Shown: piece after piece, positions 1-55,338 of the stretch
Layout: the number at the start of each line of letters is the position of its first letter
Position numbering within the stretch: position 1 is the first letter of the stretch
Assembly (NCBI GenBank): GCA_016875195.1
Contig: VGRY01000006.1
Span: 27,541-91,540, forward strand
Length of the DNA: 64,000 bases
Reading direction: 5' to 3'
Source of the DNA: Deltaproteobacteria bacterium
GTDB taxonomy: Bacteria > Desulfobacterota > BSN033 > UBA1163
The notes under the pieces: model-generated
The model's input: only the letters and a program-made list of their open reading frames with translations
The model's database searches: none
Told to the model about the DNA's origin: nothing
Translations under genes and position numbers: made by a program

Positions 1-942
1 GTCTGACCGGTTCTTCTGAGCCCAGGAGATATAGACCGGCGCTTCATAACCCGGGACCAACCGCTTATAGGAGTTCACCCATTGATTGGTGACCAGAGTG
101 ATCTCCCGCGCATGCTTCATCAGGCCGGCAATATAATATTTACCTATCGCCGACAGATGGTACTCATCCTTAGGATCGAAAAAGGCATTCTTACTCCCTT
201 TGAAAAGGGACTGATGGGTATGCATCCCGCTTCCATTGATGCCAAAAACGGGTTTGGGCATGAAGCTGGCGTAAACATTATTTTTTAAAGCCACTTCCTT
301 GACTACCAGCCGGTAAATCATCGTGCTGTCAGCCATGGTCAAGGCATCCTTGTACTTGAGATCAATCTCATGCTGGCTGGGGGCTGCCTCATGATGGCAG
401 TATTCAACCTGCACTCCCATCTCTTCCAGGGTTGTCACAGCCTGTTTGCGGAGATCGCTTGCTACATCCATGGGTGTCAGGTCGAAATAGCCTCCTGAGT
501 CGAGAAGCTCCGGTTTGCCCGAAGAGTTTTTAAAAAAGAAGAACTCCAGCTCAGGGCCCACATTGAAGGTGTATCCCATCTTGTGAGCCCTCTCTAAATT
601 CTTTTTTAACACCCAGCGGGGATCACTCTGATAGGGCTTTCCATCCGGTTGGAGGATATCGCAGAACATGACTGCCACGACATGGTCGTTCGCCTTCCAG
701 GGGAAAATTCTGAAGGTGGATGGATCCGGTTTTGCCACCATGTCGCTTTCGTCAATCCTTGCGAAACCGGCCACAGAGGAGCCGTCAAACCCCATCCCGT
801 CTTCAAGAGCTGCCTCCAGCTCACGGATGGTGATGGCAAAGCTTTTCAAAAAACCGAGGATATCGGAGAACCAGAGCCTAACAAACCTGACTTTTTTCTC
901 CTTAGCAATCCGTAAAACGTCTTTTTTACCCAGTTTAGCCAT
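1..942 (-). CDS. glnA: Glutamine synthetase type I, paralog 1 (first 314 codons; C-terminus lies beyond the window start)
   Basis: Own translation of the minus strand from ATG 942-940: MAKLGKKDVLRIAKEKKVRFVRLWFSDILGF..GMGFDGSSVAGF..GPELEFFFF..HHEAAPSQHEIDLKY..NGSGMHTHQSLF..SYKRLVPGYEAP. The frame is open to position 1, so it is absent from the ORF track. It is colinear with the complete GlnA at 53800-55122. Confidence 0.92.
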   Translation of the reverse strand, partial: MAKLGKKDVLRIAKEKKVRFVRLWFSDILGFLKSFAITIRELEAALEDGMGFDGSSVAGFARIDESDMVAKPDPSTFRIFPWKANDHVVAVMFCDILQPDGKPYQSDPRWVLKKNLERAHKMGYTFNVGPELEFFFFKNSSGKPELLDSGGYFDLTPMDVASDLRKQAVTTLEEMGVQVEYCHHEAAPSQHEIDLKYKDALTMADSTMIYRLVVKEVALKNNVYASFMPKPVFGINGSGMHTHQSLFKGSKNAFFDPKDEYHLSAIGKYYIAGLMKHAREITLVTNQWVNSYKRLVPGYEAPVYISWAQKNRSD

Positions 943-1087: not shown

Positions 1088-1792
1088 TTGCTCTACAAAA
1101 AGACTTCCTACAAACAGCAGATCAAAGCTCTGACCGAAATCAGTAAAGCCATCTCATCGGATAGGTACTTAGACGATATTTTAAAACTGATCGTAACAGT
1201 CACGGCCAATGTGATGGACTCAAAGATATGTTCTCTCTGGCTTCTCGATGAGGAAGAGAAGGCTCTCAAAATCCGTGCCACACAGACCATGAGCGAGGAA
1301 TATCTTAAGGAAAGGAGCCTGAAATTAGGCGAGGGTGTGGTGGGTTATGTGGCCCAGACCAAAAAACCCCTGGCCATTCTCGATGTCTTGAAGGAGCCAC
1401 GGTATAAGGAAAAAGAGCTGGCCCAGAAGGAGAGCCTGGTATCCATGATCAGCGTTCCGCTGGCCGTAAAAGATAAAGTGATCGGAGTGATCAACTGTTA
1501 TACTTCTTACTCCCATCAATTTACCGAGGCTGAGAAGGAGATGCTCACCGCTGTTGCCAGTCAGGCTGCCATCTGTATTGAGAGCGCAGAGCTGATGGTA
1601 AAAACCAAGGTCATCCAGGAAGAACTGGAGATCCGAAAACTGGTGGAGAGAGCCAAGGGGATTTTAATGAAACGGCATGGGCTGAACGAAGAAGAAGCGT
1701 TCAAACGAATCCGGAAAGCCAGCATGGACAGCCGGAAGACCATGCGCGACATTGCCGAAGCAATCCTCCTCACCGATAAAATGGGAGGATAG
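1088..1792 (+). CDS. One-component GAF-ANTAR RNA-binding antitermination regulator
   Basis: N-terminal GAF domain (residues ~14-170). C-terminal ANTAR signature EELEIRKLVERAKGILMKRHGLNEEEAFKRIRKASMDSRKTMRDIAEAIL. No receiver domain. Confidence 0.88.
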   Translation: MLYKKTSYKQQIKALTEISKAISSDRYLDDILKLIVTVTANVMDSKICSLWLLDEEEKALKIRATQTMSEEYLKERSLKLGEGVVGYVAQTKKPLAILDVLKEPRYKEKELAQKESLVSMISVPLAVKDKVIGVINCYTSYSHQFTEAEKEMLTAVASQAAICIESAELMVKTKVIQEELEIRKLVERAKGILMKRHGLNEEEAFKRIRKASMDSRKTMRDIAEAILLTDKMGG

Positions 1793-9315: not shown

Positions 9316-11964
9316 ATGAATAAAGGAACCGGGGGTTTAACCATTCCAAGCGGAATTGAAGCCTTAGACGATGTGTTACAGGGGCTTCGGCTTGGCGATA
9401 ACGTGGTCTGGCAAGTAGAGCGGTTGGAGGATTATAAATACTTTGCTGAACCGTTCACTCAATCTGCCATTGCTTCGCATCGAAAAATCGTCTATCTGCG
9501 ATTTGCCTCCCATCCTCCTATCCTGACGCCCCGTCCTGGACTCGAGATGATCGAGTTGAACCCCACTTTAGGGTTTGATCATTTTACTCGGGAGACACAT
9601 CATCTTATTGAAGCCTATGGTCATGGGGTGATGTACGTTTTTGACAATCTATCTGCCCTGGTTGTAGAGTGGGCTACGGATGAACTTCTTGCCAATTTTT
9701 TTCAAATTACCTGCCCTTTTCTAGCGGAATTAAATACGATCGCCTACTTTGCTTTGACTCGCGGGCAGCACGCACATTACGCCGTAGCCCGAATCCGGGA
9801 TACAACCCAGATCTTGGTCGATGTCTATCCATCACAGGGGCAAATACATATTCACCCCATCAAGGTATGGGACCGTTACTCACCCCAGATGTTTCTTCCC
9901 CATCTTGTCACTGGAAACCGATGGGCTCCCCTCTCTCACAGTCACGAGGCTGCCAAAGTGCTTTCCTCCGCCCACCCCATCTCTTTGCTCGATACGACAC
10001 GGACCATCGCTCCCTGGGAAAGCGTTTACCAAAAACTCTTACACTATTGCAGCACGCCAGCCGGCTTTAACGATACAGACCCGGAACAAAGGGCTTTAAA
10101 GTTAGAATTAAGCCGGATGCTCATCGGTCATCATCCCGTCTTTAGTCAACTGGCAGACCAGTATTTTACTCTTGAAGATCTGTTTGAAATTCGTAACCGT
10201 TTGATCGGGGCTGGACGCATTGGCGGTAAAGCCGCCGGCATGTTACTGGCACGACGCATCCTGCTGTCTTCCAAAGAGCGAGAGGGCAATATTTTTTCAG
10301 ATCGGCTCGATGACCACGATTCCTTCTTTATCGGTTCGGATGTTTTTTTCACCTTTCTGGTAAACAACGATTTGTTCCGCCTTCGTCTGCATCTCACCTG
10401 TAATTCCGAAACCTCCCAGGAAGAATTTCAAGAAATTGAGAACCGCTTTTTAGATGGCCATTTCTCAGAAACGATTCAAGAACAATTTCGAGCCATGCTC
10501 GACTATTATGGCGAAGCCCCGATCATCGTCCGATCGAGCAGCCTGCTGGAGGATAGTTTCGGAAATGCATTTGCCGGCAAATACTCAAGTATTTTCTGCC
10601 CAAACCAGGGTCCCCCTGAAGCCCGCCTCGCTGAATTCATGAAGGCGGTCAAGTTAGTTTATGCCAGCGCCCTCAACCCCGATGCCCTCTGTTATAGAAG
10701 CAAGCGGGGCCTGGGGGAGTATGACGAGCAGATGGCCATTCTGGTCCAGCGCGTCTCTGGCATGCCATATCACCACTATTTTTTCCCCACTCTGGCCGGT
10801 GTTGGTTTATCGCAAAATCTCTATGCCTGGAACGACCGCATTGATCCCCGGCAGGGAATCATTCGATTGGTCTTTGGGTTGGGGACACGCGCCGTGGACC
10901 GGGTTGATTCGGATTACCCTCGAATGATCGCCATCAGTCATCCCAATCTACGTCCGGATGTAGGATCGAAGGTTTCCAAATATTCCCAACACCATATGGA
11001 CCTGATCGACCTAAAAAACAACCGGTTCACGACTTGTTTGTTGACCGATGTCCTATCCGATGGTGACTATCCCAACCTTCATCTGCTTCTCTCGACCATG
11101 CAGGACCATTATCCCTATGATCCCATCTCAAAAAAAATCTCGGGCAGTAAGGACCAATGGGTGCTCACCTTTAACAACTTGATCCGTCAGACCGACCTGG
11201 TGCCACTCCTCAGAAAGATATTGGTCAAATTGGAGGAAGCCTATGGTCAACCGGTGGACATTGAGTTTACTGCCACTGTCAACTCCGCAAGCCAAACCCG
11301 CATCAATCTGGTTCAGTGCCGTCCACTCTATTTCCCCGGTTCACCGGAGGAAGTATCCCTACCGACCTCCCTTGATCGTCAGCGGGTGTTATTTCGCGCC
11401 CACCGAATGATCTGTGGCGGTCTGGTGGACCAAATTCGTTACATTCTCTACATCGATCCGAAGCGCTATACCCACCTGAATTTCGAGGCAAAAAAATCTT
11501 TGGGCCGACTGGTGGGACAGATCAATCGCCATCCATTGATGCATTCTAATAAGATGATCATGATGGGACCAGGACGCTGGGGAACAAGCAATATTGCCCT
11601 GGGAGTCAACGTGAGTTATGCCGACATCGGTAATGCATCCGTATTAGTGGAAGTAGCCTTGGAGGAGGAAGGCCATGTGCCTGAAGTCTCTTATGGCACC
11701 CATTTTTTTCATGACCTGATCGAGGCCCGGATCATTTATCTGCCGGTCTATCCTGCGGATCCGGCAGCAGAGCTCCATAAAAAATTCTTTGAAACCTCGC
11801 CGAATATCCTCCTGGAGTGGTTGCCCGAAGCCAGGGAATATGAATCGATCCTGCGTTTGATCGATGTTCCCAGGGTGACAGAAGGGGCATTCGCTCACGT
11901 AGTGGCCGATCCCCAACGCCAGCAGGCGGTTTGTTTCCTGGATAAACCCTTTCCCCTCATCTGA
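9316..11964 (+). CDS. KaiC-like pseudo-ATPase domain fused to PEP/pyruvate-binding (PPDK_N, ATP-grasp) domain protein
   Basis: N-terminus SGIEALDDVLQGLRLGDNVVWQVE, with no P-loop. Central LIGAGRIGGKAAGMLLARRIL..IVRSSSLLEDSFGNAFAGKY is typical of pyruvate phosphate dikinase N-terminal domains. Confidence 0.8.
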   Translation: MNKGTGGLTIPSGIEALDDVLQGLRLGDNVVWQVERLEDYKYFAEPFTQSAIASHRKIVYLRFASHPPILTPRPGLEMIELNPTLGFDHFTRETHHLIEAYGHGVMYVFDNLSALVVEWATDELLANFFQITCPFLAELNTIAYFALTRGQHAHYAVARIRDTTQILVDVYPSQGQIHIHPIKVWDRYSPQMFLPHLVTGNRWAPLSHSHEAAKVLSSAHPISLLDTTRTIAPWESVYQKLLHYCSTPAGFNDTDPEQRALKLELSRMLIGHHPVFSQLADQYFTLEDLFEIRNRLIGAGRIGGKAAGMLLARRILLSSKEREGNIFSDRLDDHDSFFIGSDVFFTFLVNNDLFRLRLHLTCNSETSQEEFQEIENRFLDGHFSETIQEQFRAMLDYYGEAPIIVRSSSLLEDSFGNAFAGKYSSIFCPNQGPPEARLAEFMKAVKLVYASALNPDALCYRSKRGLGEYDEQMAILVQRVSGMPYHHYFFPTLAGVGLSQNLYAWNDRIDPRQGIIRLVFGLGTRAVDRVDSDYPRMIAISHPNLRPDVGSKVSKYSQHHMDLIDLKNNRFTTCLLTDVLSDGDYPNLHLLLSTMQDHYPYDPISKKISGSKDQWVLTFNNLIRQTDLVPLLRKILVKLEEAYGQPVDIEFTATVNSASQTRINLVQCRPLYFPGSPEEVSLPTSLDRQRVLFRAHRMICGGLVDQIRYILYIDPKRYTHLNFEAKKSLGRLVGQINRHPLMHSNKMIMMGPGRWGTSNIALGVNVSYADIGNASVLVEVALEEEGHVPEVSYGTHFFHDLIEARIIYLPVYPADPAAELHKKFFETSPNILLEWLPEAREYESILRLIDVPRVTEGAFAHVVADPQRQQAVCFLDKPFPLI

Positions 11965-11992: not shown

Positions 11993-12021
11993 TTGACAAA
12001 AAATATTCTTTATTGTAAAAA
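11993..12021 (+). promoter_or_regulatory. sigma70-type promoter TTGACA-N17-TAAAAA
   Basis: TTGACA 11993-11998 and TAAAAA 12016-12021. The predicted TSS at ~12028 is 3 nt before hairpin P1. Confidence 0.5.
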
Positions 12022-12030
12022 GGAATTAAT

Positions 12031-12085
12031 CAATACAGTGGTGTATTGAGGACAAAGGGGTCGAAGAAATTCGGCCCCTTTTTTT
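12031..12085 (+). promoter_or_regulatory. ANTAR-type dual-hairpin antiterminator / intrinsic terminator module, copy 1
   Basis: P1 CAATAC-AGTGGT-GTATTG at 12031-12048. P2 GAC-AAAGGG-GTC at 12051-12062. Terminator GGGGTCGAA-gaaa-TTCGGCCCC at 12057-12078 plus T7. The terminator 5' arm overlaps the 3' half of P2. Confidence 0.75.
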
Positions 12086-12138
12086 ATACAAAGGGGTATC
12101 CGCGACAGGGGCGTCCAAGGAATGGGCTCCCTTTTTTT
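12086..12138 (+). promoter_or_regulatory. ANTAR-type antiterminator/terminator module, copy 2
   Basis: P1 ATAC-AAAGGG-GTAT at 12086-12099. P2 GAC-AGGGGC-GTC at 12104-12115. Terminator stem 12109-12131 (8 bp with one C/T mismatch) plus T7 at 12132-12138. Confidence 0.65.
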
Positions 12139-12144
12139 ATTTGA

Positions 12145-12194
12145 TACAATGGAGTACGAAAGACAAAGGTGTCAAAGCAAGTTGGTTCTTTTTT
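12145..12194 (+). promoter_or_regulatory. Degenerate third copy of the module
   Basis: P1 TAC-AATGGA-GTA at 12145-12156. P2 GAC-AAAGGT-GTC at 12162-12173. T-run at 12189-12194, but I could not draw a convincing terminator stem. Confidence 0.4.
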
Positions 12195-12224
12195 ATCCAT
12201 TTACTGAAAAGGAGGAACTATAAA

Positions 12225-13877
12225 ATGAGCTTTGCCAAACCGAATAGAAGTCCAGCGACCTTTACCAAAAATCGAGTCGAGCCAGCCCCGCAATCGGGAA
12301 TCTGCGTGACCTGTCTGGATGGCTGCCCGGGTCCCTGTGAAGTGGGTCGGTCTGCCTTGAGGGGAAGAGAGGTTCTGTACCCTCAGCCCTATTCCAAGAT
12401 AACGGCCGGGTCTGAAAAGGATTACCCGGTTGACTTGTCCCATTTTAATATCCAGGGAACCTGTGTGGGAGCGATTGGGGTGAACGCTGATTCAGATCAT
12501 GCGACCTTTCCTGCCGTCGATGTTTCAACACAGGTGGGAGCGAAGGAAAAGATCAAAATGAAAGTCCCCTACTTTACGGGTGCCCTGGGTTCAACCGACA
12601 TTGCCCGGATCCACTGGGAATCAATGGCCATTGCAGCCGCTATTTCAGGGACACTGGTCGTGGTGGGAGAAAATGTCTGCGGAATGGATCCCAATTCTGA
12701 ACTTAAAAATGGCCGTGTGGTCCATTCTCCAGAGTTGGAGCGGCGCGTCAACATATTCCAACAGTGGTATGATGGATATGGTGGAATTGTTGTCCAGTAC
12801 AATGTAGAAGATGGTCGCCTCGGGGTTCCAGAATATGCTGTTGAAAAATTGGGCGTCCAGATCATCGAGCCAAAATGGGGACAGGGCGCCAAGGATATCG
12901 GCGGCGAGGTCAAACTGCCTTCTCTTGAAAGAGCGCAGCAATTGAAGAGCCGTGGCTATATCGTTTACCCTGACCCTGAAGATCAAGTCATCCAGGAAGC
13001 TTTTAAACAAGGAGATTTTAAAGAATTTGAAAGACACTCAAGATTGGGAATGGTGGATGAAGAAGGCTTTCACAAAGAAGTCGCTCGCCTGAGAAAAATG
13101 GGAGCAAAGTATGTAACCTTGAAGACCGGAGCCTATCGGCCGGCTGATCTGGCACGGGCCGTTAAATACTCTTCCGATGCCCAAATCGACCTTCTCACAG
13201 TCGATGGCGCGGGTGGAGGAACTGGAATGAGTCCCTGGCGGATGATGAACGAGTGGGGAATCCCGACCGTTTACCTCGAAGGCCTTCTTTACCAATACCT
13301 GAAACGATTAGACCAGAGGGGTGCATTCATTCCTGACTGCGCTATGGCAGGAGGACTTGCCCTTGAAGACCATATCTTCAAATCGATCGCCTTGGGCGCA
13401 CCTTATATCAAAGCCATCTGCCTGGGTCGGGCTTCGATGACAGCCGCTATGGTGGGCAATACCATCGGTGAGATGGTTAAAAAGGGAAAGGTCCCCGCTG
13501 ACATTGCCAAATACGGCGCTGATGTCGAACATGTCTTTATCCTGGCTGCTAAGCTGAAGGATAGATTCGGAAAAGATTTTGAACGCATTCCCACGGGAAC
13601 GATCGGAATGCTCACCTATTTTGACCGGTTGAATGCAGGACTTCAACAATTTATGGCTGGAGCTAGAAAATTTGCTCTAAATTATATTTCCAGAAGTGAC
13701 CTCTGCAGTTTAACCCGGGAAGCAGCCTACGTCTCTGGGATTCCTTATGTGATGGATTCGGATAAAGAGGAAGTTGACAATATTTTACGAAAAGGAGACC
13801 ATGTGGAGAAAACCTCCTCGAAAATTCTAAACCTGAACCTCGAGGCCCTCATCAAATCAAAAGCCGTCATGGGTTAA
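12225..13877 (+). CDS. Glutamate synthase-related FMN-binding (GltS central domain family) protein with N-terminal Cys motif
   Basis: Strong SD aaaggagga 9 nt before ATG 12225. CVTCLDGCPGPCEV motif. VPYFTGALGS, QGAKDIGGEVKLP and LLTVDGAGGGTGMSP match GltB FMN-domain motifs. The 12141 TTG start in the ORF track lies inside the leader modules. Confidence 0.85.
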   Translation: MSFAKPNRSPATFTKNRVEPAPQSGICVTCLDGCPGPCEVGRSALRGREVLYPQPYSKITAGSEKDYPVDLSHFNIQGTCVGAIGVNADSDHATFPAVDVSTQVGAKEKIKMKVPYFTGALGSTDIARIHWESMAIAAAISGTLVVVGENVCGMDPNSELKNGRVVHSPELERRVNIFQQWYDGYGGIVVQYNVEDGRLGVPEYAVEKLGVQIIEPKWGQGAKDIGGEVKLPSLERAQQLKSRGYIVYPDPEDQVIQEAFKQGDFKEFERHSRLGMVDEEGFHKEVARLRKMGAKYVTLKTGAYRPADLARAVKYSSDAQIDLLTVDGAGGGTGMSPWRMMNEWGIPTVYLEGLLYQYLKRLDQRGAFIPDCAMAGGLALEDHIFKSIALGAPYIKAICLGRASMTAAMVGNTIGEMVKKGKVPADIAKYGADVEHVFILAAKLKDRFGKDFERIPTGTIGMLTYFDRLNAGLQQFMAGARKFALNYISRSDLCSLTREAAYVSGIPYVMDSDKEEVDNILRKGDHVEKTSSKILNLNLEALIKSKAVMG

Positions 13878-14032: not shown

Positions 14033-14061
14033 TTGACAAACAATAGGTTTCATATTAAAAG
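14033..14061 (+). promoter_or_regulatory. sigma70-type promoter TTGACA-N17-TAAAAG for gdh
   Basis: TTGACA 14033-14038 and TAAAAG 14056-14061. The predicted TSS coincides with the start of P1 at 14069. Confidence 0.5.
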
Positions 14062-14068
14062 AACATCA

Positions 14069-14120
14069 CAATACAAAGAGGTATTGGAGATCGGGCATCA
14101 AGTTTTTGATGCTTTTTTTT
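14069..14120 (+). promoter_or_regulatory. ANTAR-type antiterminator/terminator module (gdh leader, copy 1)
   Basis: P1 CAATAC-AAAGAG-GTATTG at 14069-14086. P2 GAT-CGGGC-ATC at 14089-14099 has a 5-nt loop. Terminator GCATCAA-gttt-TTGATGC at 14095-14112 plus T8. Confidence 0.7.
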
Positions 14121-14122
14121 AA

Positions 14123-14178
14123 ACGATAAAGCGTCGTATGAATGACAAAGGCGTCAGAGTGAATGGACGCCTTTTTTT
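14123..14178 (+). promoter_or_regulatory. ANTAR-type antiterminator/terminator module (gdh leader, copy 2)
   Basis: P1 ACGA-taaagcg-TCGT at 14123-14137. P2 GAC-AAAGGC-GTC at 14144-14155. Terminator GGCGTC..GGACGCC at 14150-14171 plus T7. Confidence 0.7.
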
Positions 14179-32737: not shown

Positions 32738-34078
32738 TTATATTGCCTCCATTGCCTTAGTGGCAAGTTCCTTGGCTTTTGAATAGTTCGCCTTGGCAGT
32801 GGCATCCCACTGGGTTTCCAGCTTTGCTCTGGTCTCGGTCTTCTCCTTGGGAAGAAAGGCCTTGTTAAATTCCTTGTCTTTGGCCTGAGCCTCGGTCACT
32901 GGCACTTTAGTTGCTAATGACCGGGCCTCGGCAACCATTCCAATCGCCTTTGTTACATCCTTCCCTTTCTTTTTCCCTTCCTCAATAGCCTTCTCCGCTT
33001 TATATATCGCGCCCCATGCCTCTTTCAATTCGTTTAACCTGAAGGTGATGATCTGATCGAAGAGGGGATTGACGATGCTATACCTCAAAGAGGAGAGTTC
33101 AGAGTTGAAATCAAGACCACCCAGTTTCATCTTAAAAGGATTCGGATATCCTCCAGGGGCTTTCACATAGAGTTCGGGGATGACAGGAAGCCTTCCGATC
33201 TCCGGTTTAAAAAGAAGCATCTGCCCTTCTTCACTGAGAAGATAATTGACAAACCTTTTCGCATTCTCAGGGTTCGGCCCTCCCTTTACAATACCTACGT
33301 TGGCTGGAACAATCGGAGTCAGAGAGGGATAGGCGAAATCAACCGGGAAACCGCTCGCTATGGCTGAGAGTCCGAAAAAGTCGATGACAATCCCAATTCC
33401 ATATTGTCCGTTGTTGACGCCTTCCGGCACACCGAAACTTCTCTCTGTTACGACAGCCATGTTACCGCCCATATTGAGCAGAAGTGCCCAGCCTTTATCC
33501 CAACCATAAGCCTGAAGGATGGATTCGACCGTGAGATGGGTGGTACCACTTCTCGAAGGCGCTGAAATCGAAAGGTGACCGAAGTAGCTGGGGTCAACCA
33601 GATCAGTCCATTCTTTCGGAGGTTTCACTTTGTGGGTCTGAAGATAGGGTTTATTCCACATCATCCCGTAACCGGAAAGCGCAAACCCGAAGAAGAACCC
33701 GTCAGGGTCATGGACTGGAAAAGCCCCGACCTTGGGGGGAATCCTTGATGCGATCTCTTTGGTAAGGTCATATTTGGCCAATAGCTTATCTGTCTTTAAA
33801 ACCTGGAAGGCATCCACGGCGCTGGCCCACATGAGGTCCGTATCTGGTTTTGCTGCTGTCTCACGGATATAGGTTACCCCCTGTGTGGTCGGTTTCTGCT
33901 GAATGACGACCTTAACCCCGGGATATTTCACTTCGAACGCTTTTTTATAAGCCTCAAAAAGCTCCTTTGGAAAGGAGGTAACAATGACCACCTCCTTGGT
34001 CTGGGCCCCCGCCATGGAAGAAATGAAAACGAATATAACCAGAGATACGACGATAAGTAGAGATTTCTTCATAGCCAT
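32738..34078 (-). CDS. ABC transporter periplasmic substrate-binding protein (family 1; iron(III)/polyamine/thiamine type) with Lys/Ala-rich C-terminal extension
   Basis: Signal peptide plus SBP fold motifs. First gene of an SBP-permease-ATPase operon. Confidence 0.8.
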   Translation of the reverse strand: MAMKKSLLIVVSLVIFVFISSMAGAQTKEVVIVTSFPKELFEAYKKAFEVKYPGVKVVIQQKPTTQGVTYIRETAAKPDTDLMWASAVDAFQVLKTDKLLAKYDLTKEIASRIPPKVGAFPVHDPDGFFFGFALSGYGMMWNKPYLQTHKVKPPKEWTDLVDPSYFGHLSISAPSRSGTTHLTVESILQAYGWDKGWALLLNMGGNMAVVTERSFGVPEGVNNGQYGIGIVIDFFGLSAIASGFPVDFAYPSLTPIVPANVGIVKGGPNPENAKRFVNYLLSEEGQMLLFKPEIGRLPVIPELYVKAPGGYPNPFKMKLGGLDFNSELSSLRYSIVNPLFDQIITFRLNELKEAWGAIYKAEKAIEEGKKKGKDVTKAIGMVAEARSLATKVPVTEAQAKDKEFNKAFLPKEKTETRAKLETQWDATAKANYSKAKELATKAMEAI

Positions 34079-34098: not shown

Positions 34099-34449
34099 CT
34101 ATTTCGATAAATCCGAAAGATATTCCTTGATCAGCATCCCGTTTCTATGCTGAACCTTCTGCATCTCACCCAAGGCTACGTTCTCGAAGGGTTGTTTCCT
34201 TCCTTTGTTTCTCAGGCGGGCGATCTCCTCATCGAGGTAGCGGATGGTGTTGGCAATAGCCTCTGCCATGGAAAAGACCGATTCCTGGGCCCTTTCAAAG
34301 GTTTCTTTATCCAGATAGGCCCGGTTTAAAAGGTGGAACCGTTCAAAGAATTTCTGGAGTTTTTCTGTCTCCTCTTTCTTTTCCTTCTTTTTCTTGTCTA
34401 TCCCCTTTGCGATCTCTAAAAATTTTTCCAACTCCATAAAAACCCCCAA
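34099..34449 (-). CDS. Hypothetical coiled-coil protein
   Basis: Lys/Glu-rich ORF. A TTGACA-N17-TAAATT promoter lies on the minus strand about 34470-34510. Confidence 0.45.
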   Translation of the reverse strand: MGVFMELEKFLEIAKGIDKKKKEKKEETEKLQKFFERFHLLNRAYLDKETFERAQESVFSMAEAIANTIRYLDEEIARLRNKGRKQPFENVALGEMQKVQHRNGMLIKEYLSDLSK

Positions 34450-34682
34450 GCGTTTCTCAAGTTTGATTTAAATACAAATTTATGAAAATAGACCCAATTT
34501 GTCAACTAAAAGTGGAAAATCATTGCTTGTAAAGGATGGGCTTATGATTTGTACTTAAAAATGCGGTATTCTTAACGAAAGGAATGGAAACAAGTCTTGC
34601 ATTAACACATTATAAAAACCTTTTTTTTGCCCGAAACCTAGTCAACTCCCTCGTCCAAAGTATTTTATCTCAGCATACGGTT

Positions 34683-43880: not shown

Positions 43881-43896
43881 TGGCACAAGGATTGCT
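43881..43896 (+). promoter_or_regulatory. sigma54 promoter TGGCAC-N5-TTGCT
   Basis: tggcacaaggattgct is a perfect consensus. 11 nt (ctctatactgc, no SD) lie between it and ATG 43908. Confidence 0.75.
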
Positions 43897-44625: not shown

Positions 44626-48879
<4,254 letters not shown>

Positions 48880-49922: not shown

Positions 49923-49929
49923 TATTAAA

Positions 49930-49983
49930 AATACGAAGCTGTATTGGGGACGAGGGCGTCAAGGTTTATTGACGCCTTTTTTT
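49930..49983 (+). promoter_or_regulatory. ANTAR-type antiterminator/terminator module (kinase operon leader)
   Basis: P1 AATAC-GAAGCT-GTATT at 49930-49945. P2 GAC-GAGGGC-GTC at 49949-49960. Terminator GGCGTCAA-ggttta-TTGACGCC at 49955-49976 plus T7. Confidence 0.75.
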
Positions 49984-50201
49984 ATCCGCCTACGCAGAAG
50001 ACCACCCCGCTCAGCGGGATGGATGAATGCGCATAATTGCCAAAGTAAGTTATGGGTTTATAAATTACTGCTTCGGCGGATTTCGCTGAAGGCGGATAAC
50101 CCTCCGAAGCCTTGGCGTAGGAGGGTATCTTTATGGAGATACTACGAGCTTTGCCCGTGGGGCTCCATCGGTAGCCACTGGCCCAGCGGGTCAACAGTAG
50201 A

Positions 50202-51929
50202 ATGGGATCAATTGGATTGAATAAAAAAAATTCAATTCCCGATGCGAAAGAGATCAATGCTTTGCTTGAGATCAGTAAAGCCATCGCTTCGGGTCTCTAT
50301 CTCGAGGATGTCCTTCGTCTGATCGTGACGGTGACCGCTAATGTGATGGACTCGAAGATCTGTTCTCTCTGGATCCTCGATGAAAGAGATCAGAGGTTGA
50401 AATTAAAAGCCACCCAGTCCATCAGCGAAGAATACCTCAGGGAGAGAAGCCTGGCTCTTGGAGAGGGAGTGGTCGGTCATGTCGCCCTTCATAATAAACC
50501 CATGGCCATTGCCAATGTCCTTCAAGACCCTCTCTATAAGGAGAAAGAGTTAGCAAAGAGGGAAGGATTGGTCTCCATGCTCAGCGTGCCAATGTGCATC
50601 AAGGAGAAGGTGATCGGGGTGATCAACTGTTATTCGTCCTCCCCTCGAACCTTTTCGAAGTCGGAAGAGGAGATGCTCTCAACCGTGGCCAATCAGGCTG
50701 CCATCTGCATCGAAAACTCCGGCCTCATGGAAACCCTCGATATCGATGAAATCCTGAGGCTGGTGCTGGAAGGGGTGATCAAGAACATCGGATTTGATCG
50801 GGCACGACTCTATCTGATCAACGAAAAGAGAAATGTCCTTGAATGCAAGATGGCTGTGGGAGTGGATGTGGAGAAGATCAAAGGGATTGAACTCCCTCTT
50901 ACCCTCGAAAGCAGTGTGGTATCGAGGTCTGTGATTGAAAAGAAACCCTATTTCATTCCCGATGCCAGGAATGACCAAAGGGTCAACCCTGTTTTAAAAG
51001 AGAAATTCAATCTTCACTCCCTCGTGGTCATTCCTCTCTTCACAAAAGAAAAAGTTCTCGGGGTGATTGCCGCAGACCATATCGAACCCGGAAGAAGGCT
51101 GACACAGGAAACGCTCGATTCGGTGATGACTTTTGCTCAACAGGCAGGATTGGCCATTCAAAATGCCTCCATGTATCAGGAGCTCAAGAATTTCAGCCAG
51201 CAGATGGAGGAGAAGATTGAAAAGACAACTGCGGACCTCAGAAAAACAGAGGCTCAGTTGATTCGGTCTGAAAAACTGGCAGCCCTGGGTCAACTGGCCG
51301 CAGGCATTGCCCATGAAATCCGAAATCCTCTGACCAGCATCAACATCCTCATTCATTCGATGAGGGAGAAATTGCCCTCTGAACATTCACAGCAGGAAGA
51401 CCTGAAAGTGATCGAAGAGGAAATCTATCGCATGGATGAGATCGTCAGCCAGTTTCTTCGATTCGCAAAACCCGCTTCTCCATTCCTTGAAAAAACAGAT
51501 CCCCTCTCTATTTTTGAGGAGATCCTTCAATTGCTCAGGCCTCAGATAGAAAGGCAACGCATCATGGTTGAAAAGGAGTTCCAAGCCCTTCCTATGATCC
51601 TGATCGACCGTGAGCAGATGAAACAGGCCATGCTCAATCTTCTGCTCAATGCCATCCAGGCCATGCCGAAAGGAGGTCATCTGATCCTTTCAGGTCGGAA
51701 TTCCGAAGATGGCCAATGGGTTTGTCTATCCGTCCAGGACTCCGGAATAGGAATCTCTTCAGAAGACATGGATAAACTGTTCGACCCCTTCTTCTCCACA
51801 AAAGAGGGGGGAATGGGCCTTGGCCTCTCCATCACCCATCGCATCATTGACCAGCATCATGGAAAGATTGAGGTGAATAGCATCCCTGAAAAGGGAACGC
51901 TTTTTACAGTTTGGTTACCTATTTCATGA
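50202..51929 (+). CDS. Sensor histidine kinase: GAF-GAF-HisKA-HATPase_c
   Basis: First GAF is 106/157 identical to the GAF of the ANTAR protein (hand alignment). H-box AHEIRNPLTSI. N/G boxes LLLNAIQAM and DSGIGI..GGMGLGL. Confidence 0.9.
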   Translation: MGSIGLNKKNSIPDAKEINALLEISKAIASGLYLEDVLRLIVTVTANVMDSKICSLWILDERDQRLKLKATQSISEEYLRERSLALGEGVVGHVALHNKPMAIANVLQDPLYKEKELAKREGLVSMLSVPMCIKEKVIGVINCYSSSPRTFSKSEEEMLSTVANQAAICIENSGLMETLDIDEILRLVLEGVIKNIGFDRARLYLINEKRNVLECKMAVGVDVEKIKGIELPLTLESSVVSRSVIEKKPYFIPDARNDQRVNPVLKEKFNLHSLVVIPLFTKEKVLGVIAADHIEPGRRLTQETLDSVMTFAQQAGLAIQNASMYQELKNFSQQMEEKIEKTTADLRKTEAQLIRSEKLAALGQLAAGIAHEIRNPLTSINILIHSMREKLPSEHSQQEDLKVIEEEIYRMDEIVSQFLRFAKPASPFLEKTDPLSIFEEILQLLRPQIERQRIMVEKEFQALPMILIDREQMKQAMLNLLLNAIQAMPKGGHLILSGRNSEDGQWVCLSVQDSGIGISSEDMDKLFDPFFSTKEGGMGLGLSITHRIIDQHHGKIEVNSIPEKGTLFTVWLPIS

Positions 51930-51974
51930 TGACCGATGAACCATCATCTGTTCATCGTATTGAAAGGGGCAAAC

Positions 51975-53414
51975 ATGCAGACGATCCTCATTGTTGACGA
52001 TGATAAATCGATCCGCTACTCTCTGAAAAGGATGCTGGAAGATCATTTTTCCATCCTCACTGCCCAGAATGGAGAAGAAGCCCTATCGCGCATGAAAGAA
52101 TCTTCCCCTGATCTGATCATCATGGATATCAAGATGCCTGGCCGGAACGGAATCGATGTGTTGAAGGAGATGAAGTTCCTTGACCCGAAGTCCCTCATCA
52201 TTCTGATGACCGCCTATGGCACTACAGAGACGGCGATCGAGGCGATGAAATTTGGGGCTTTCGATTACATCCTCAAACCTTTCCCGATTCCACAGATGAA
52301 AGAGTTGGTGCAAAAGGCGATCGCATTGCGGAAACTGATGAAGGAAGAAGTCTCCTATGCATCCGAACCGGATCAACAAAAAGAGGAAGAACAGATCATC
52401 GGTTCCGCTCCCAAGATGCAGGAGATCTATAAGGTGATCGGACAGGTGGCTCCCAGCGATGTCACTGTCCTCCTCAGAGGCGAGAGTGGAACGGGAAAGG
52501 AATTAGTGGCACGTGCAATCTATCACTACAGCCTCCGTTCGAGCTACCCGTTTCTTCCGGTCAATTGTGCTGCCATCCCGGATACCCTTCTCGAAAGTGA
52601 ACTCTTCGGCCATGAAAAAGGAGCTTTTACCGGTGCCATCTCCAGGCGCATCGGAAAACTGGAACAATGTCAGGGAGGGACCATTTTTCTGGATGAAATC
52701 GGTGACATGTCTCTCTCCACTCAGGCCAAACTCCTCAGAATCCTTCAGGAAAAGACTTTTGAAAGGCTTGGGGGAAGGGAAACGCTCAGGGTGGATATTC
52801 GATTTATCGTGGCAACGAATAAAGATCTTGAAGAGGCGATGGTCAGGGGGGAATTTCGTGAAGACCTCTATTACCGGCTCAATGTGGTCTCTATCAAGAT
52901 TCCTCCTTTAAGGGAAAGAAAAGAGGATATCCCGAACCTCACCTCTTACTTCTTAAAAAAATTCAATCGTGATTTAAAGCGGAAGGTCGCCGGGATCACT
53001 CCATCGGCAATGGGAAAAATCACCTCCTACGGATGGCCAGGAAATGTGAGACAATTGGAAAATGTTCTGAAAAGAGCCGTGCTCCTCTGCCAGGGAGAAT
53101 GGATTCTTGATGATCAACTCCTTCTTGATGTAGAAGAGAGACGAGAGGCTGCAGAGGTTCTGAAAGGAAAGACATTCGAGGGCCTACTCGATTCCCTCTT
53201 TATGGAACTCACGGAAACCTCCCCGGACCGGGAAGGTCTGGATATGGTTTCAGCCATTGAGAAAGGGTTGATCCTTCGTGCCCTTCAAAAGACGAACGGA
53301 AACCAGGTTCAGGCAGCTTCGCTTCTCGGAATCAATCGGGGCACGCTCCGGAGCAAAATGGAGCGGTATCACATTAGAAAAGAGGTGCTGGTTTCCGAAG
53401 AGGATAATGAATAA
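51975..53414 (+). CDS. NtrC-family sigma54-dependent response regulator (REC-AAA+-Fis HTH)
   Basis: MQTILIVDDD..DLIIMDIKMPG, GESGTGKE, GAFTGA, and C-terminal AASLLGINRGTLRSKM. ATG 51975 with SD aagggg is preferred over 51936. Confidence 0.9.
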   Translation: MQTILIVDDDKSIRYSLKRMLEDHFSILTAQNGEEALSRMKESSPDLIIMDIKMPGRNGIDVLKEMKFLDPKSLIILMTAYGTTETAIEAMKFGAFDYILKPFPIPQMKELVQKAIALRKLMKEEVSYASEPDQQKEEEQIIGSAPKMQEIYKVIGQVAPSDVTVLLRGESGTGKELVARAIYHYSLRSSYPFLPVNCAAIPDTLLESELFGHEKGAFTGAISRRIGKLEQCQGGTIFLDEIGDMSLSTQAKLLRILQEKTFERLGGRETLRVDIRFIVATNKDLEEAMVRGEFREDLYYRLNVVSIKIPPLRERKEDIPNLTSYFLKKFNRDLKRKVAGITPSAMGKITSYGWPGNVRQLENVLKRAVLLCQGEWILDDQLLLDVEERREAAEVLKGKTFEGLLDSLFMELTETSPDREGLDMVSAIEKGLILRALQKTNGNQVQAASLLGINRGTLRSKMERYHIRKEVLVSEEDNE

Positions 53415-53589: not shown

Positions 53590-53605
53590 TGGCATATTAT
53601 TTGCT
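53590..53605 (+). promoter_or_regulatory. sigma54 promoter TGGCAT-N5-TTGCT upstream of glnA
   Basis: tggcatattatttgct with canonical spacing. The predicted TSS at ~53616 is 4 nt before P1. Confidence 0.75.
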
Positions 53606-53619
53606 ATTAATATTTCGTT

Positions 53620-53684
53620 AATACGATGGGGTATTAGAATGACAAGGGCGTCTTTCTTAAAACGGAGAGACGCCTTTTTATTTT
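53620..53684 (+). promoter_or_regulatory. ANTAR-type antiterminator/terminator module (glnA leader)
   Basis: P1 AATAC-GATGGG-GTATT at 53620-53635. P2 GAC-AAGGGC-GTC at 53641-53652. Terminator GGCGTCTTTC-ttaaaacg-GAGAGACGCC at 53647-53674 plus TTTTTATTTT. Confidence 0.75.
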
Positions 53685-53690
53685 AATAAA

Positions 53691-53780
53691 GCACGAATAC
53701 CACGAATGAATAACGAATTACGCGAATCAAAACATAGAAGGTTTTATTCGGTAAATTCGTTATTATTCGCCTAATTCGTA
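53691..53780. repeat. Imperfect palindrome (E8) of CACGAAT/ATTCGTG-type words inside the glnA 5' UTR
   Basis: gcacgaataccacgaatgaataacgaattacgcgaatc ... attcggtaaattcgttattattcgcctaattcgta. Confidence 0.7.
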
Positions 53781-53799: not shown

Positions 53800-55122
53800 A
53801 TGGACAAAGCAACTGTATTGAAGATGGCGAAGGAGAATGATGTCAAATTTATCCGACTCTGGTTTACGGACATTCTGGGATTTCTGAAGGGGTTTTCGAT
53901 CACCATCCATGAACTCGAAGGGGCCCTTGAGGAAGGCATGGGGTTTGATGGTTCCTCGATCCAGGGATATGCTCGAATCGACGAAAGCGATATGATCGCT
54001 AAGCCTGACCCAAAGACCTTCCAGATCATCCCGTGGCGACCCAAAGAGAATGCAGTAGCCCGGATGTTTGCCGATGTCTATGAACCTGATGGAACCCCCT
54101 ACAAAGGCGACCCCAGATTCGTCTTAAAAAAGACTCTTAAGAAGGCGCATGACCTTGGATATACCTTATATGTCGGGCCTGAACTGGAATATTTCTACTT
54201 TAAAAGCAGTGATGGGGCGCCACAGATTCTTGATAAAGGAGGATATTTTGACCTCACCCCTCTGGATGTGGCAACCGAACTCCGGCGTGAAACCATTCTC
54301 ACACTTGAAGCCATGGGTATCAGGGTGGAATACAGCCATCACGAGGTAGCCCCGAGCCAGCATGAGATCGATCTCCGTTATGCCGAGGCTCTGAGCATGG
54401 CAGACAATGCCATGACCTATCGCCTCGTGGTGAAGGAGGTTGCATTGAGACACGGTGTCTACGCCACATTCATGCCCAAACCCATTTTTAAACAGAACGG
54501 AAGCGGGATGCACACCCATCAGTCCCTTTTCAAGGGTGACACGAATGTCTTCTTCGATCCGAAGGATGAATTCCATCTTTCAAAGATTGCCAAGTCTTAT
54601 ATGGCCGGAATTTTAAAACATTCAAAGGAAATCACCTCCATCACCTCCCAGTGGATCAACTCTTACAAAAGACTTGTCCCAGGATACGAAGCGCCGGTCT
54701 ATATCGCCTGGGCCCGGAGAAACCGTTCGGCACTGGTCCGGGTTCCCATGTATAAACCTGGAAAAGAGAAAGCCACACGGATGGAACTCCGCTCCCCCGA
54801 TCCGGCATGCAATCCCTATCTGGCCTTTGCTGTCATGTTGGCTGCAGGCCTGAAGGGAATCGAGAAGGGTTATGAACTTCCGTCTCCTGTTGAGGAGGAC
54901 ATTTTTGAGATGTCTGAAGAGGCACGGAAAAGACACGGAATCGAATCGCTTCCGGGAAGTCTATATGAAGCCATCCAGCTCACCGAACAGAGTGAACTGG
55001 TAAGAGAAACCCTTGGAGACCACATCTTCCATAAATTCATTGAAAACAAGAAGATCGAATGGGATCAGTACCGGACCCACATCTCCCAGTTCGAATTGGA
55101 GAAGTATCTGCCTATTCTTTAA
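53800..55122 (+). CDS. glnA: Glutamine synthetase type I, paralog 2 (complete, 440 aa)
   Basis: GMGFDGSSIQGY, GPELEYFYF, HHEVAPSQHEIDLRY, NGSGMHTHQSLF, RVPMYKPGKEKATRMELRSPD. SD aaggagga upstream. Confidence 0.95.
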   Translation: MDKATVLKMAKENDVKFIRLWFTDILGFLKGFSITIHELEGALEEGMGFDGSSIQGYARIDESDMIAKPDPKTFQIIPWRPKENAVARMFADVYEPDGTPYKGDPRFVLKKTLKKAHDLGYTLYVGPELEYFYFKSSDGAPQILDKGGYFDLTPLDVATELRRETILTLEAMGIRVEYSHHEVAPSQHEIDLRYAEALSMADNAMTYRLVVKEVALRHGVYATFMPKPIFKQNGSGMHTHQSLFKGDTNVFFDPKDEFHLSKIAKSYMAGILKHSKEITSITSQWINSYKRLVPGYEAPVYIAWARRNRSALVRVPMYKPGKEKATRMELRSPDPACNPYLAFAVMLAAGLKGIEKGYELPSPVEEDIFEMSEEARKRHGIESLPGSLYEAIQLTEQSELVRETLGDHIFHKFIENKKIEWDQYRTHISQFELEKYLPIL

Positions 55123-55130
55123 AAAAGTTT

Positions 55131-55338
55131 AACGGTTAGGGTAACGAGGCCTCTGCCTACCGGCCCCGGGCCCGACCGAGGGTGGGGCAGGCAGGCGCTT
55201 CGGTTAATTTTAAATTGACGTTTGTCGTTGTCGAAGCTCGTATCGATGCTCGACTGTCGAAACTGGAGGTTCGAATCCATTTTTGCCGGGTTTCGAGCAT
55301 CGAGCTTCCAGCTTCGATACCAGCGTCGTCACCGTTAA
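55131..55338. repeat. Two adjacent imperfect palindromes (E9)
   Basis: gcctctgcctacc..ggtggggcaggcaggc, then gtcgaagctcgtatcgatgctcga .. tcgagcatcgagcttccagcttcgatacc. Confidence 0.6.

Follow-up and report, generated by a model that had tools for sequence, protein, structure and literature searches.

What does a leader that repeats one RNA module three times do for the gene behind it, and which protein would read it? We address this question for positions 11,993–12,224 of a 64,000-nucleotide (nt) stretch of contig VGRY01000006.1 from Deltaproteobacteria bacterium (GenBank assembly GCA_016875195.1), further referred to as the window. The region is the leader of a gene encoding a GltS-like protein. 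An initial annotation, made by a model from the letters of the sequence, described in it three stacked units, each consisting of a hairpin P1, a hairpin P2 and a terminator, and assigned them to the substrates of ANTAR antiterminators. The observation was confirmed, and the ANTAR interpretation is supported by sequence comparison: the units match the published definition of an ANTAR substrate (PMC3369931), and the window encodes an ANTAR protein. We propose that the leader is a serial transcription attenuator composed of repeated ANTAR-target modules and controlled by the GAF-ANTAR protein encoded at 1088–1792, and estimate the probability of this reading at approximately 0.8. The proposal draws directly on the anatomy, folding energies and conservation of the modules, their strand bias, their coupling to terminators, and synteny.

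Architecture of the GltS-like leader

In the systems analyzed by Ramesh et al. 2012 (PMC3369931), the ANTAR substrate consists of two small hexaloop hairpins, and A at loop position 1 and G at position 4 (A1/G4), the closing pairs and the overlap of P2 with the terminator are essential. The closing pairs of eutP are A-U followed by C-G (PMC3369931). Three tandem modules of this kind, with the annotated hexaloops, are present at 12030–12194 of the window (coordinates and energies of the elements are listed in Table 1). The purine noted at loop position 1 and the G at position 4 were borne out, position 1 being A in all six loops. The P1 hairpins are closed by ..AC/GU.. and the P2 hairpins by GAC/GUC in every module. 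The linkers between P1 and P2, given earlier as 2–4 nt, in fact measure 1, 4 and 5 nt, whereas the loop-to-loop spacing equals 17 nt in all three modules.

Both terminators, T1 of module 1 and T2 of module 2, take the 3'-half of P2 as their own 5'-arm, as seen in the terminator scan and in folding; the mutual exclusion of P2 and the terminator described in the initial annotation thus holds for these two. The P2 hairpins are far less stable than the terminators with which they compete (Table 1), therefore the predicted default fold is termination at T1 and T2. In module 3, folding yielded no hairpin abutting the U-run and no usable terminator, in line with the annotated loss of the terminator in this copy. 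As judged from its sequence, the predicted binding site of module 3 is intact and its terminator has decayed. Hence, the three stacked modules are effectively two predicted working attenuators and one terminator-less putative binding site. Folding of the whole leader gave z = −3.9 relative to shuffled sequences.

The promoter TTGACA-N17-TAAAAA has the sequence given in the initial annotation. Transcription is predicted to start at approximately 12028, and P1 of module 1 begins 2 nt later. A scan of the leader with the promoter consensus reported no promoter, because the −10 box lacks the usual final T, and the promoter call therefore rests on conservation of the −35 box. TTGACA is invariant and lies at an equal distance from P1 in five orthologous leaders (L001–L004 and L006). 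The gene upstream of the L001 leader is on the opposite strand, and this leader must therefore have its own promoter. In the window, sequence inspection and the terminator scan found no terminator between the stop codon of the upstream gene 9316–11964 (stop at 11964) and T1. The ATG of the regulated open reading frame (ORF) is at 12225. No NCBIfam model matched its 550-aa product.

A search of the whole window against Rfam at gathering thresholds gave no matches. When the leader was searched with E-values up to 10, the best match scored 26 bits against a threshold of 56, and the matches were weak, of the small-RNA type and driven by the terminators. As Rfam seems to offer no usable model for ANTAR targets, two covariance models covering the P1-P2 unit were constructed. 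Model R1 was built from 18 seeds, five of them from the window, and model R2 from 13 seeds, all from other organisms. With filters switched off, both models retrieved the same seven sites in the window, all on the plus strand, the next match having E = 0.4; the seven copies counted in the initial annotation were thus reproduced exactly. Three sites are in the GltS-like leader, two in the gdh leader, one precedes an operon encoding a histidine kinase and an NtrC-like protein, and one precedes glnA. By R2 and Pfam, the modules in the window are confined to leaders of nitrogen genes.

Modules in related leaders and the history of the triplet

Two sets of related loci were used for comparison. The GltS-like set contains 80 loci from species-representative genomes recovered with the GltS-like protein, and the GAF-ANTAR set contains 80 metagenome loci encoding proteins with 82–94% identity to the 1088–1792 protein. 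The closest GltS-like orthologues (82–92% identity) have the same leader and come from metagenome-assembled genomes labelled Thermodesulfobacteriota, Syntrophorhabdus or Syntrophaceae.

The modules are strongly biased to the gene strand. All 45 R1 matches in the GltS-like loci and the window are on the strand of the gene, and 88 of 89 matches in the GAF-ANTAR loci are on the strand of the GAF-ANTAR gene. A strict regular expression applied to the window and all 160 related loci (1.16 Mb) matched 78 times on the gene strand and never on the opposite one. A hairpin overlapping P2 and abutting a U-run follows 73 of these 78 canonical modules (median −14.5 kcal/mol). Module 3 of the window is among the five modules with no qualifying terminator; the clear exceptions are this module and the second module of L007.

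Conservation extends to the loop positions and the spacing. Among 24 related canonical modules, G is present at position 4 in all, A at position 1 in 18–19 (G in the remainder), and the 17-nt loop-to-loop spacing is kept in 18, whatever the length of P1. In distant leaders of the Syntrophaceae type, hexaloops of this kind are carried by an unrelated P1 stem. In the alignment derived from the model, 83.5% of cells pair, compared to 77.5% in shuffled alignments and 23–54% when partners were slid by 1–3 columns. The covariation score equals 0.165 versus 0.092 in shuffles, and none of 500 shuffles reached the observed value. Both sides have changed in six of the 11 pairs. The covariation anticipated among homologous leaders was found as compensatory changes in the outer P1 pairs.

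Orthologous leaders carry one or two modules after TTGACA, with clean doublets in L001, L002, L003, L004 and L006. The metagenomic GltS-like leaders include 20 doublets, six singlets and no triplets, and among the genome-set and metagenomic leaders examined no triplet was found outside the window. The doublet is the conserved, usual state of the GltS-like leader in the relatives. Partial decay has taken different forms: the second module has lost P1 in L005 (1512–1530) and its terminator in L007 (1306–1340), and the terminator of the first module is lost in L013 (2867–2951). Judged by these sequences, such differences indicate rapid turnover of module number within the clade.

Pairwise identities link the three modules of the window to the two of its relatives. 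Module 1 shares 86% identity with the promoter-proximal module of L004. P2 and the terminator of module 2 are closest to the proximal module of L001 (77% identity). The distal module of L001 (L001b), the terminator of which is intact, is 82% identical to module 3 and shares with it the flanking sequence UUUGAUACA and the terminator-loop sequence AAAGCAA-UUUG. A whole-leader MAFFT alignment placed module 2 of the window, not module 3, opposite the distal module of the relatives, and the pairwise identities disagree with it. The sequences thus make module 3 the probable, not settled, orthologue of the ancestral promoter-distal module, and the likeliest history is the gain of an extra proximal-type module (module 2) and decay of the ancestral distal terminator. 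The initial annotation had suggested ongoing duplication and decay: the decay stands, whereas the third copy does not appear to be a young duplicate, given its identity to L001b, and the extra copy appears to be the middle one. If module 3 is the decayed old distal copy, the leader has two working decision points, as in the relatives.

An alternative is that module 3 works as it is, either as a terminator-less site, for example a decoy or landing pad by which the regulator is concentrated locally, or as a translational switch acting via a hairpin at 12183–12222. Its determinants are indeed intact: A1/G4 in both loops, the 17-nt spacing and a score of 35–44 bits. The hairpin, predicted at −10.5 kcal/mol, is formed by the 3'-arm and U-run of the module 3 remnant and a downstream segment, and it covers the Shine-Dalgarno sequence GGAGG (12211–12215). 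Translation-acting ANTAR RNAs are known in mycobacteria (bioRxiv 10.1101/660928). Folding speaks against a switch, since closing P1 and P2 of module 3 makes no difference to the predicted pairing of the Shine-Dalgarno sequence, the unpaired probability of which does not exceed 0.02 in either case. Nor is the hairpin conserved among the relatives, and hence it is probably incidental. For these two reasons we rejected a translational switch as the leading explanation. The similar partial decay in L005, L007 and L013 suggests neutral turnover. Overall, a function of module 3 in its present form seems unlikely, and we retain its interpretation as a relic.

Candidate regulator and other nitrogen genes

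The protein encoded at 1088–1792 is a one-component GAF-ANTAR protein. Its ANTAR domain matches Rv1626, the EutV-type response regulator 6wsh, NasR and AmiR. The best matches of its GAF domain are the N-terminal GAF domain of PtsP (EI-Ntr) and the GAF domain of NifA. The NifA GAF domain binds 2-oxoglutarate, and that of Escherichia coli EI-Ntr mediates the response to glutamine and 2-oxoglutarate. Of the 57 module clusters in the GAF-ANTAR set, 47 follow the GAF-ANTAR stop codon at a distance of less than 450 nt; the gene behind them is GltS-like (19 clusters) or gdh (20), or is lost at a contig end (eight). The common layout in the relatives is glnA (minus strand) and GAF-ANTAR, followed by modules, the GltS-like gene or gdh, the GAF-kinase gene, the NtrC-like gene and nadE. 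Mainly because of this adjacency, the GAF-ANTAR protein is the likely reader of the modules. Its gene is divergent in the window from a second glnA paralogue (1–942, minus strand), cut by the window edge and 68% identical to glnA 53800–55122. The glnA/GAF-ANTAR pairing is present in most metagenomic relatives, and the leader of the paralogue yielded no ANTAR module.

The modules could also be genuine ANTAR sites that serve another ANTAR regulator, encoded beyond the window, such as a response regulator similar to GnfR, the GAF-ANTAR protein having other targets. REC-ANTAR proteins do control nitrogen genes in Geobacter (PMC2995071) and adjoin glnA in Desulfotomaculum (PMC3369931), and the GAF-ANTAR gene of the window is 10 kb distant from the leader. 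The synteny in the relatives argues against such a regulator: the 47 clusters follow a GAF-ANTAR orthologue on the same strand. Pfam found no second ANTAR domain among the 30 larger ORFs of the window, the remaining ORFs being unscanned. The GAF domain, moreover, resembles the nitrogen-sensing GAF domains of PtsP and NifA. We therefore consider control by another regulator quite improbable.

It is very doubtful that the terminators are constitutive ones or insulators, for instance ending the transcript of the upstream gene 9316–11964, and that the hexaloop hairpins arose by chance. T1 may also end the upstream transcript, given the lack of a terminator between 11964 and T1. Such an explanation disagrees with the conserved promoter between the upstream gene and the modules, with detection by the model built from other organisms at E-values down to 1e-9, with the 78:0 strand count, with the conserved loop positions and spacing, and with the restriction of the modules to nitrogen-gene leaders. 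A protein-free metabolite riboswitch, e.g. for glutamine, would suit the position upstream of nitrogen assimilation genes and the tandem layout common among riboswitches, yet it is hardly credible, as no Rfam family reached its threshold in the window and the terminator-driven best matches in the leader scored below half of the gathering score, each unit consists of two hairpins of 3–7 bp, too small for a ligand pocket, and the units agree with the ANTAR consensus point by point (PMC3369931).

Table 1. Positions of the leader elements, the regulated gene, the candidate regulator and the other module-bearing leaders in the window
Feature	Position	Strand	Details
Sigma-70-type promoter	11993–12021	+	−35 TTGACA 11993–11998; 17-nt spacer; −10 TAAAAA 12016–12021
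Module 1	12030–12085	+	R1 45.8 bits; R2 42.1 bits, E = 1.4e-9
Module 1 P1	12030–12049	+	UCAAUAC-AGUGGU-GUAUUGA, 7 bp
Module 1 P2	12051–12062	+	GAC-AAAGGG-GUC; P1-P2 linker 1 nt
Terminator T1	stem 12054–12081, U7 12079–12085	+	−18.6 kcal/mol vs −0.6 for module 1 P2
Module 2	12086–12138	+	R2 31.7 bits, E = 9.4e-7
Module 2 P1	12086–12099	+	AUAC-AAAGGG-GUAU, 4 bp
Module 2 P2	12104–12115	+	GAC-AGGGGC-GUC; linker CCGC, 4 nt
Terminator T2	12107–12133, U7 12132–12138	+	−12.9 kcal/mol vs −0.7 for module 2 P2
Module 3	12145–12194	+	R2 35.1 bits, E = 1.1e-7
Module 3 P1	12145–12156	+	UAC-AAUGGA-GUA, 3 bp
Module 3 P2	12162–12173	+	GAC-AAAGGU-GUC; linker CGAAA, 5 nt
Module 3 degenerate stem	12165–12192, U6 12189–12194	+	best stem −2.0 kcal/mol
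Predicted hairpin, UGGUUCUUUUUU (3'-arm and U-run of module 3 remnant) with AAAAGGAGGAACUA	12183–12222	+	−10.5 kcal/mol
Regulated GltS-like gene	12225–13877	+	550 aa; partial glutamate-synthase flavin mononucleotide (FMN) domain PF01645 (Pfam E = 1.4e-14); N-terminal Cys-rich motif
GAF-ANTAR gene, candidate regulator, one-component	1088–1792	+	234 aa; Pfam ANTAR PF03861 80 bits, GAF 78 bits
gdh leader, two stacked modules	14068–14178 (R2 sites 14068–14157)	+	R2 E = 1.1e-6 and 8.9e-4; neither a seed
gdh module 1	terminator 14095–14112, U8	+	pentaloop P2 variant GAU-CGGGC-AUC
gdh module 2	U7 of terminator 14172–14178	+	P2 UGAC-AAAGGC-GUCA
Single module and terminator before GAF-histidine-kinase/NtrC-like operon (50202–53414)	49928–49982 (R2 site 49928–49962)	+	R2 E = 1.1e-8; fold −19.4 kcal/mol
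Sigma-54-type promoter TGGCATATTATTTGCT	53590–53605	+	glnA leader; single module begins 12 nt later
glnA leader module and terminator	to 53685 (R2 site 53618–53654)	+	R2 E = 1.3e-6; terminator from folding

The gdh leader (14033–14178) also has a TTGACA promoter. Its two-module layout with the pentaloop variant is kept in L001 (UGGGC) and L004 (GGGGC), and L003 has a single canonical module. The sigma-54 pattern TGGCAYN5TTGCW has three perfect matches in the window (53590–53605, 43881–43896 and 32900–32915) compared to 0.1 expected. The first of them suggests that glnA is under double control by a sigma-54 promoter and an ANTAR module. A cluster of GATase, amt, PII and glnD genes is preceded by a sigma-54-type promoter and has no ANTAR module. 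A rule that sigma-70 promoters go with stacked modules and sigma-54 promoters with single ones found no support: there are only four leaders, and the kinase operon combines a sigma-70-like promoter with a single module.

The GAF-ANTAR protein and the histidine kinase 50202–51929 have similar sensor domains: the GAF domain of the former shares 65% identity (E = 1e-76) with the first GAF domain of the latter, and on the strength of this similarity the two proteins probably sense the same signal. An ANTAR attenuator always precedes the kinase/NtrC operon, which has its own module in the window and seems to share a transcript with the GltS-like gene in the relatives. One may tentatively see in these features a new nitrogen circuit of Syntrophia-like Thermodesulfobacteriota, in which one type of GAF sensor has two outputs, a feed-forward AND gate operates, and module number is a tunable gain. 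If this were true, the outputs would be the ANTAR antiterminator and the histidine kinase feeding an NtrC-like sigma-54 activator. The attenuated kinase/NtrC operon together with the sigma-54 promoter and attenuator of glnA would then make a coherent feed-forward AND gate. The number of modules (one to three, with fast turnover between species) would provide evolvable control of gain and leak for constitutive promoters.

Several other features were noted near these genes. An unusually stable fold (−86 kcal/mol, z = −3.2) is predicted for 49983–50205, the 220 nt that separate the ANTAR terminator from the GAF-kinase gene. Three intergenic hairpins, all long and imperfect, are located at 53693–53779 (ACGAAU/AUUCG words; −28.6 kcal/mol, z = −5.3), 45946–46017 (repeated GAGUUCGGA/UCCGAACUC; −32.5 kcal/mol, z = −5.1) and 55216–55331 (UCGA-rich; −51.8 kcal/mol, z = −4.4). 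The ORF 55430–63025 downstream of glnA encodes an unusually large glutamate-synthase-like protein of 2531 aa, in which FAD_binding_4, several 4Fe-4S, Glu_synthase, GATase_6 and GXGXG domains are fused in an order unlike that of the usual GltB.

Proposed mechanism and comparison with known systems

We infer from the ANTAR family that the protein binds the modules and acts as an antiterminator, and likewise which signal it receives and what form the response takes. Transcription would start at approximately 12028 from the sigma-70-type promoter, and the nascent RNA of module 1 would form P1 and then a transient 3-bp P2. When no protein is bound, the more stable T1 would capture the 3'-half of P2, and the polymerase would stop at the U-run at approximately 12085. 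The active GAF-ANTAR protein, probably a dimer, would grip both hexaloops via A1 and G4, 17 nt apart, and keep P2 shut; T1 could not then nucleate, and the polymerase would read on. Module 2 would repeat the decision, with the stop at approximately 12138. Module 3 presumably makes no decision, its terminator being lost; most likely it is what remains of the ancestral promoter-distal module. By analogy with tandem riboswitches (PMC9481103), it is reasonable to expect that read-through approximates the product of two probabilities, which would mean less leak from a constitutive promoter and a steeper response. The signal, received via the GAF domain, is probably nitrogen status.

Several observations weigh against this mechanism. 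The gdh gene and genes of the glutamine synthetase/glutamate synthase (GS/GOGAT) type are usually regulated oppositely, and here both carry modules. The −10 hexamer TAAAAA is poor. In the window, unrelated genes lie within the 10 kb that separate the GAF-ANTAR gene from the GltS-like leader, and another ANTAR protein may be encoded beyond the 64 kb. The inner pairs UAC/GUA and GAC/GUC are invariant and give no covariation signal, as expected if a protein reads the loops and the closing pairs. Finally, linkers in the Enterococcus faecalis eut leaders measure 5–12 nt, and linkers of 3 nt or 14 nt abolished induction (PMC3369931); the 1-nt linker of module 1 is below the 3 nt that abolished induction of eutP. 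The geometry here must differ (17 nt from loop to loop compared to 24 nt in eutP). The spacing is constant here despite the variable linkers, and the published range is that of EutV and may not be that of a GAF-ANTAR protein.

The RNA motif, the mechanism and the link to nitrogen genes are already established, and the current understanding is not overturned. What the locus adds is a well-supported ANTAR regulon in a poorly studied, mostly uncultured syntrophic lineage of Thermodesulfobacteriota. It also singles out a highly conserved one-component GAF-ANTAR protein as the regulator candidate; the literature searched contained no published characterization of a GAF-ANTAR nitrogen regulator or of any other member of this class. 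Three aspects are under-described: the conservation of the doublet, the occasional occurrence of a triplet and a one-component GAF-ANTAR protein as the regulator. Leaders of close relatives with one, two and three modules form a natural series on the stacking of protein-dependent attenuators.

Compared to EutV/eutP, NasR/nasF and AmiR/amiE, the leader has all sequence-level features of an ANTAR substrate with the exception of linker length. ANTAR sites precede nitrogen genes in many bacteria, including those for glutamate synthase, glutamine synthetase, amt/PII and nif (PMC3369931). As in the systems of Ramesh et al., an ANTAR protein is encoded nearby and the leaders belong to glutamate synthase and glutamine synthetase genes. 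The regulator in the window differs from theirs in being a one-component GAF-ANTAR protein and not a REC-, NIT- or AmiR_N-ANTAR one, and the leaders of the window clade differ from the eut leaders in having two to three modules each.

Serial stacking, which the initial annotation set apart from the textbook arrangement, is not unprecedented: apart from the doublets conserved in the relatives, Table S2 of PMC3369931 lists matches 50–200 nt apart and assigned to the same genes, such as 34402–34448 and 34596–34642 in Desulfotomaculum acetoxidans, and 813893–813941 and 813992–814050 in D. carboxydivorans. The same study counted "13 attenuation systems" in six transcriptional units of D. acetoxidans (PMC3369931). 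The Desulfotomaculum pairs resemble the stacking in the window, the terminator between the members of each pair being inferred from spacing only. These bacteria are Firmicutes with REC-ANTAR regulators, and stacking is listed there, neither analyzed nor tested. Stacked ANTAR sites have thus been on record, undiscussed, since the tables of 2012, and we found no paper analyzing them in the literature searched.

Tandem riboswitches provide a parallel for the response. Serial units responding to one input lower the leak and make the response steeper, or "pseudo-cooperative", and natural multiples include tandem thiamine pyrophosphate (TPP) and triple c-di-GMP-I riboswitches (PMC9481103, PMC4759541). 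The leader is similar to them in placing complete sensor and terminator units, two in the window, in series before one ORF; the difference is that the predicted sensor is a protein-RNA complex and not a metabolite-binding aptamer.

Another regulatory parallel is the deltaproteobacterial GnfK/GnfR cascade of Geobacter sulfurreducens, where an ANTAR antiterminator acting on terminators in nitrogen-gene leaders is combined with an NtrBC-like sigma-54 system (PMC2995071). The window likewise combines a sigma-54 system with ANTAR antitermination in what would be a deltaproteobacterial nitrogen regulon. GnfR is a phosphorylated response regulator below the sigma-54 system, whereas the ANTAR protein of the window carries its own GAF sensor. 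Compared to GnfLM/GnfKR, the hierarchy in the window is apparently reversed, with the kinase/NtrC operon placed behind an ANTAR attenuator.

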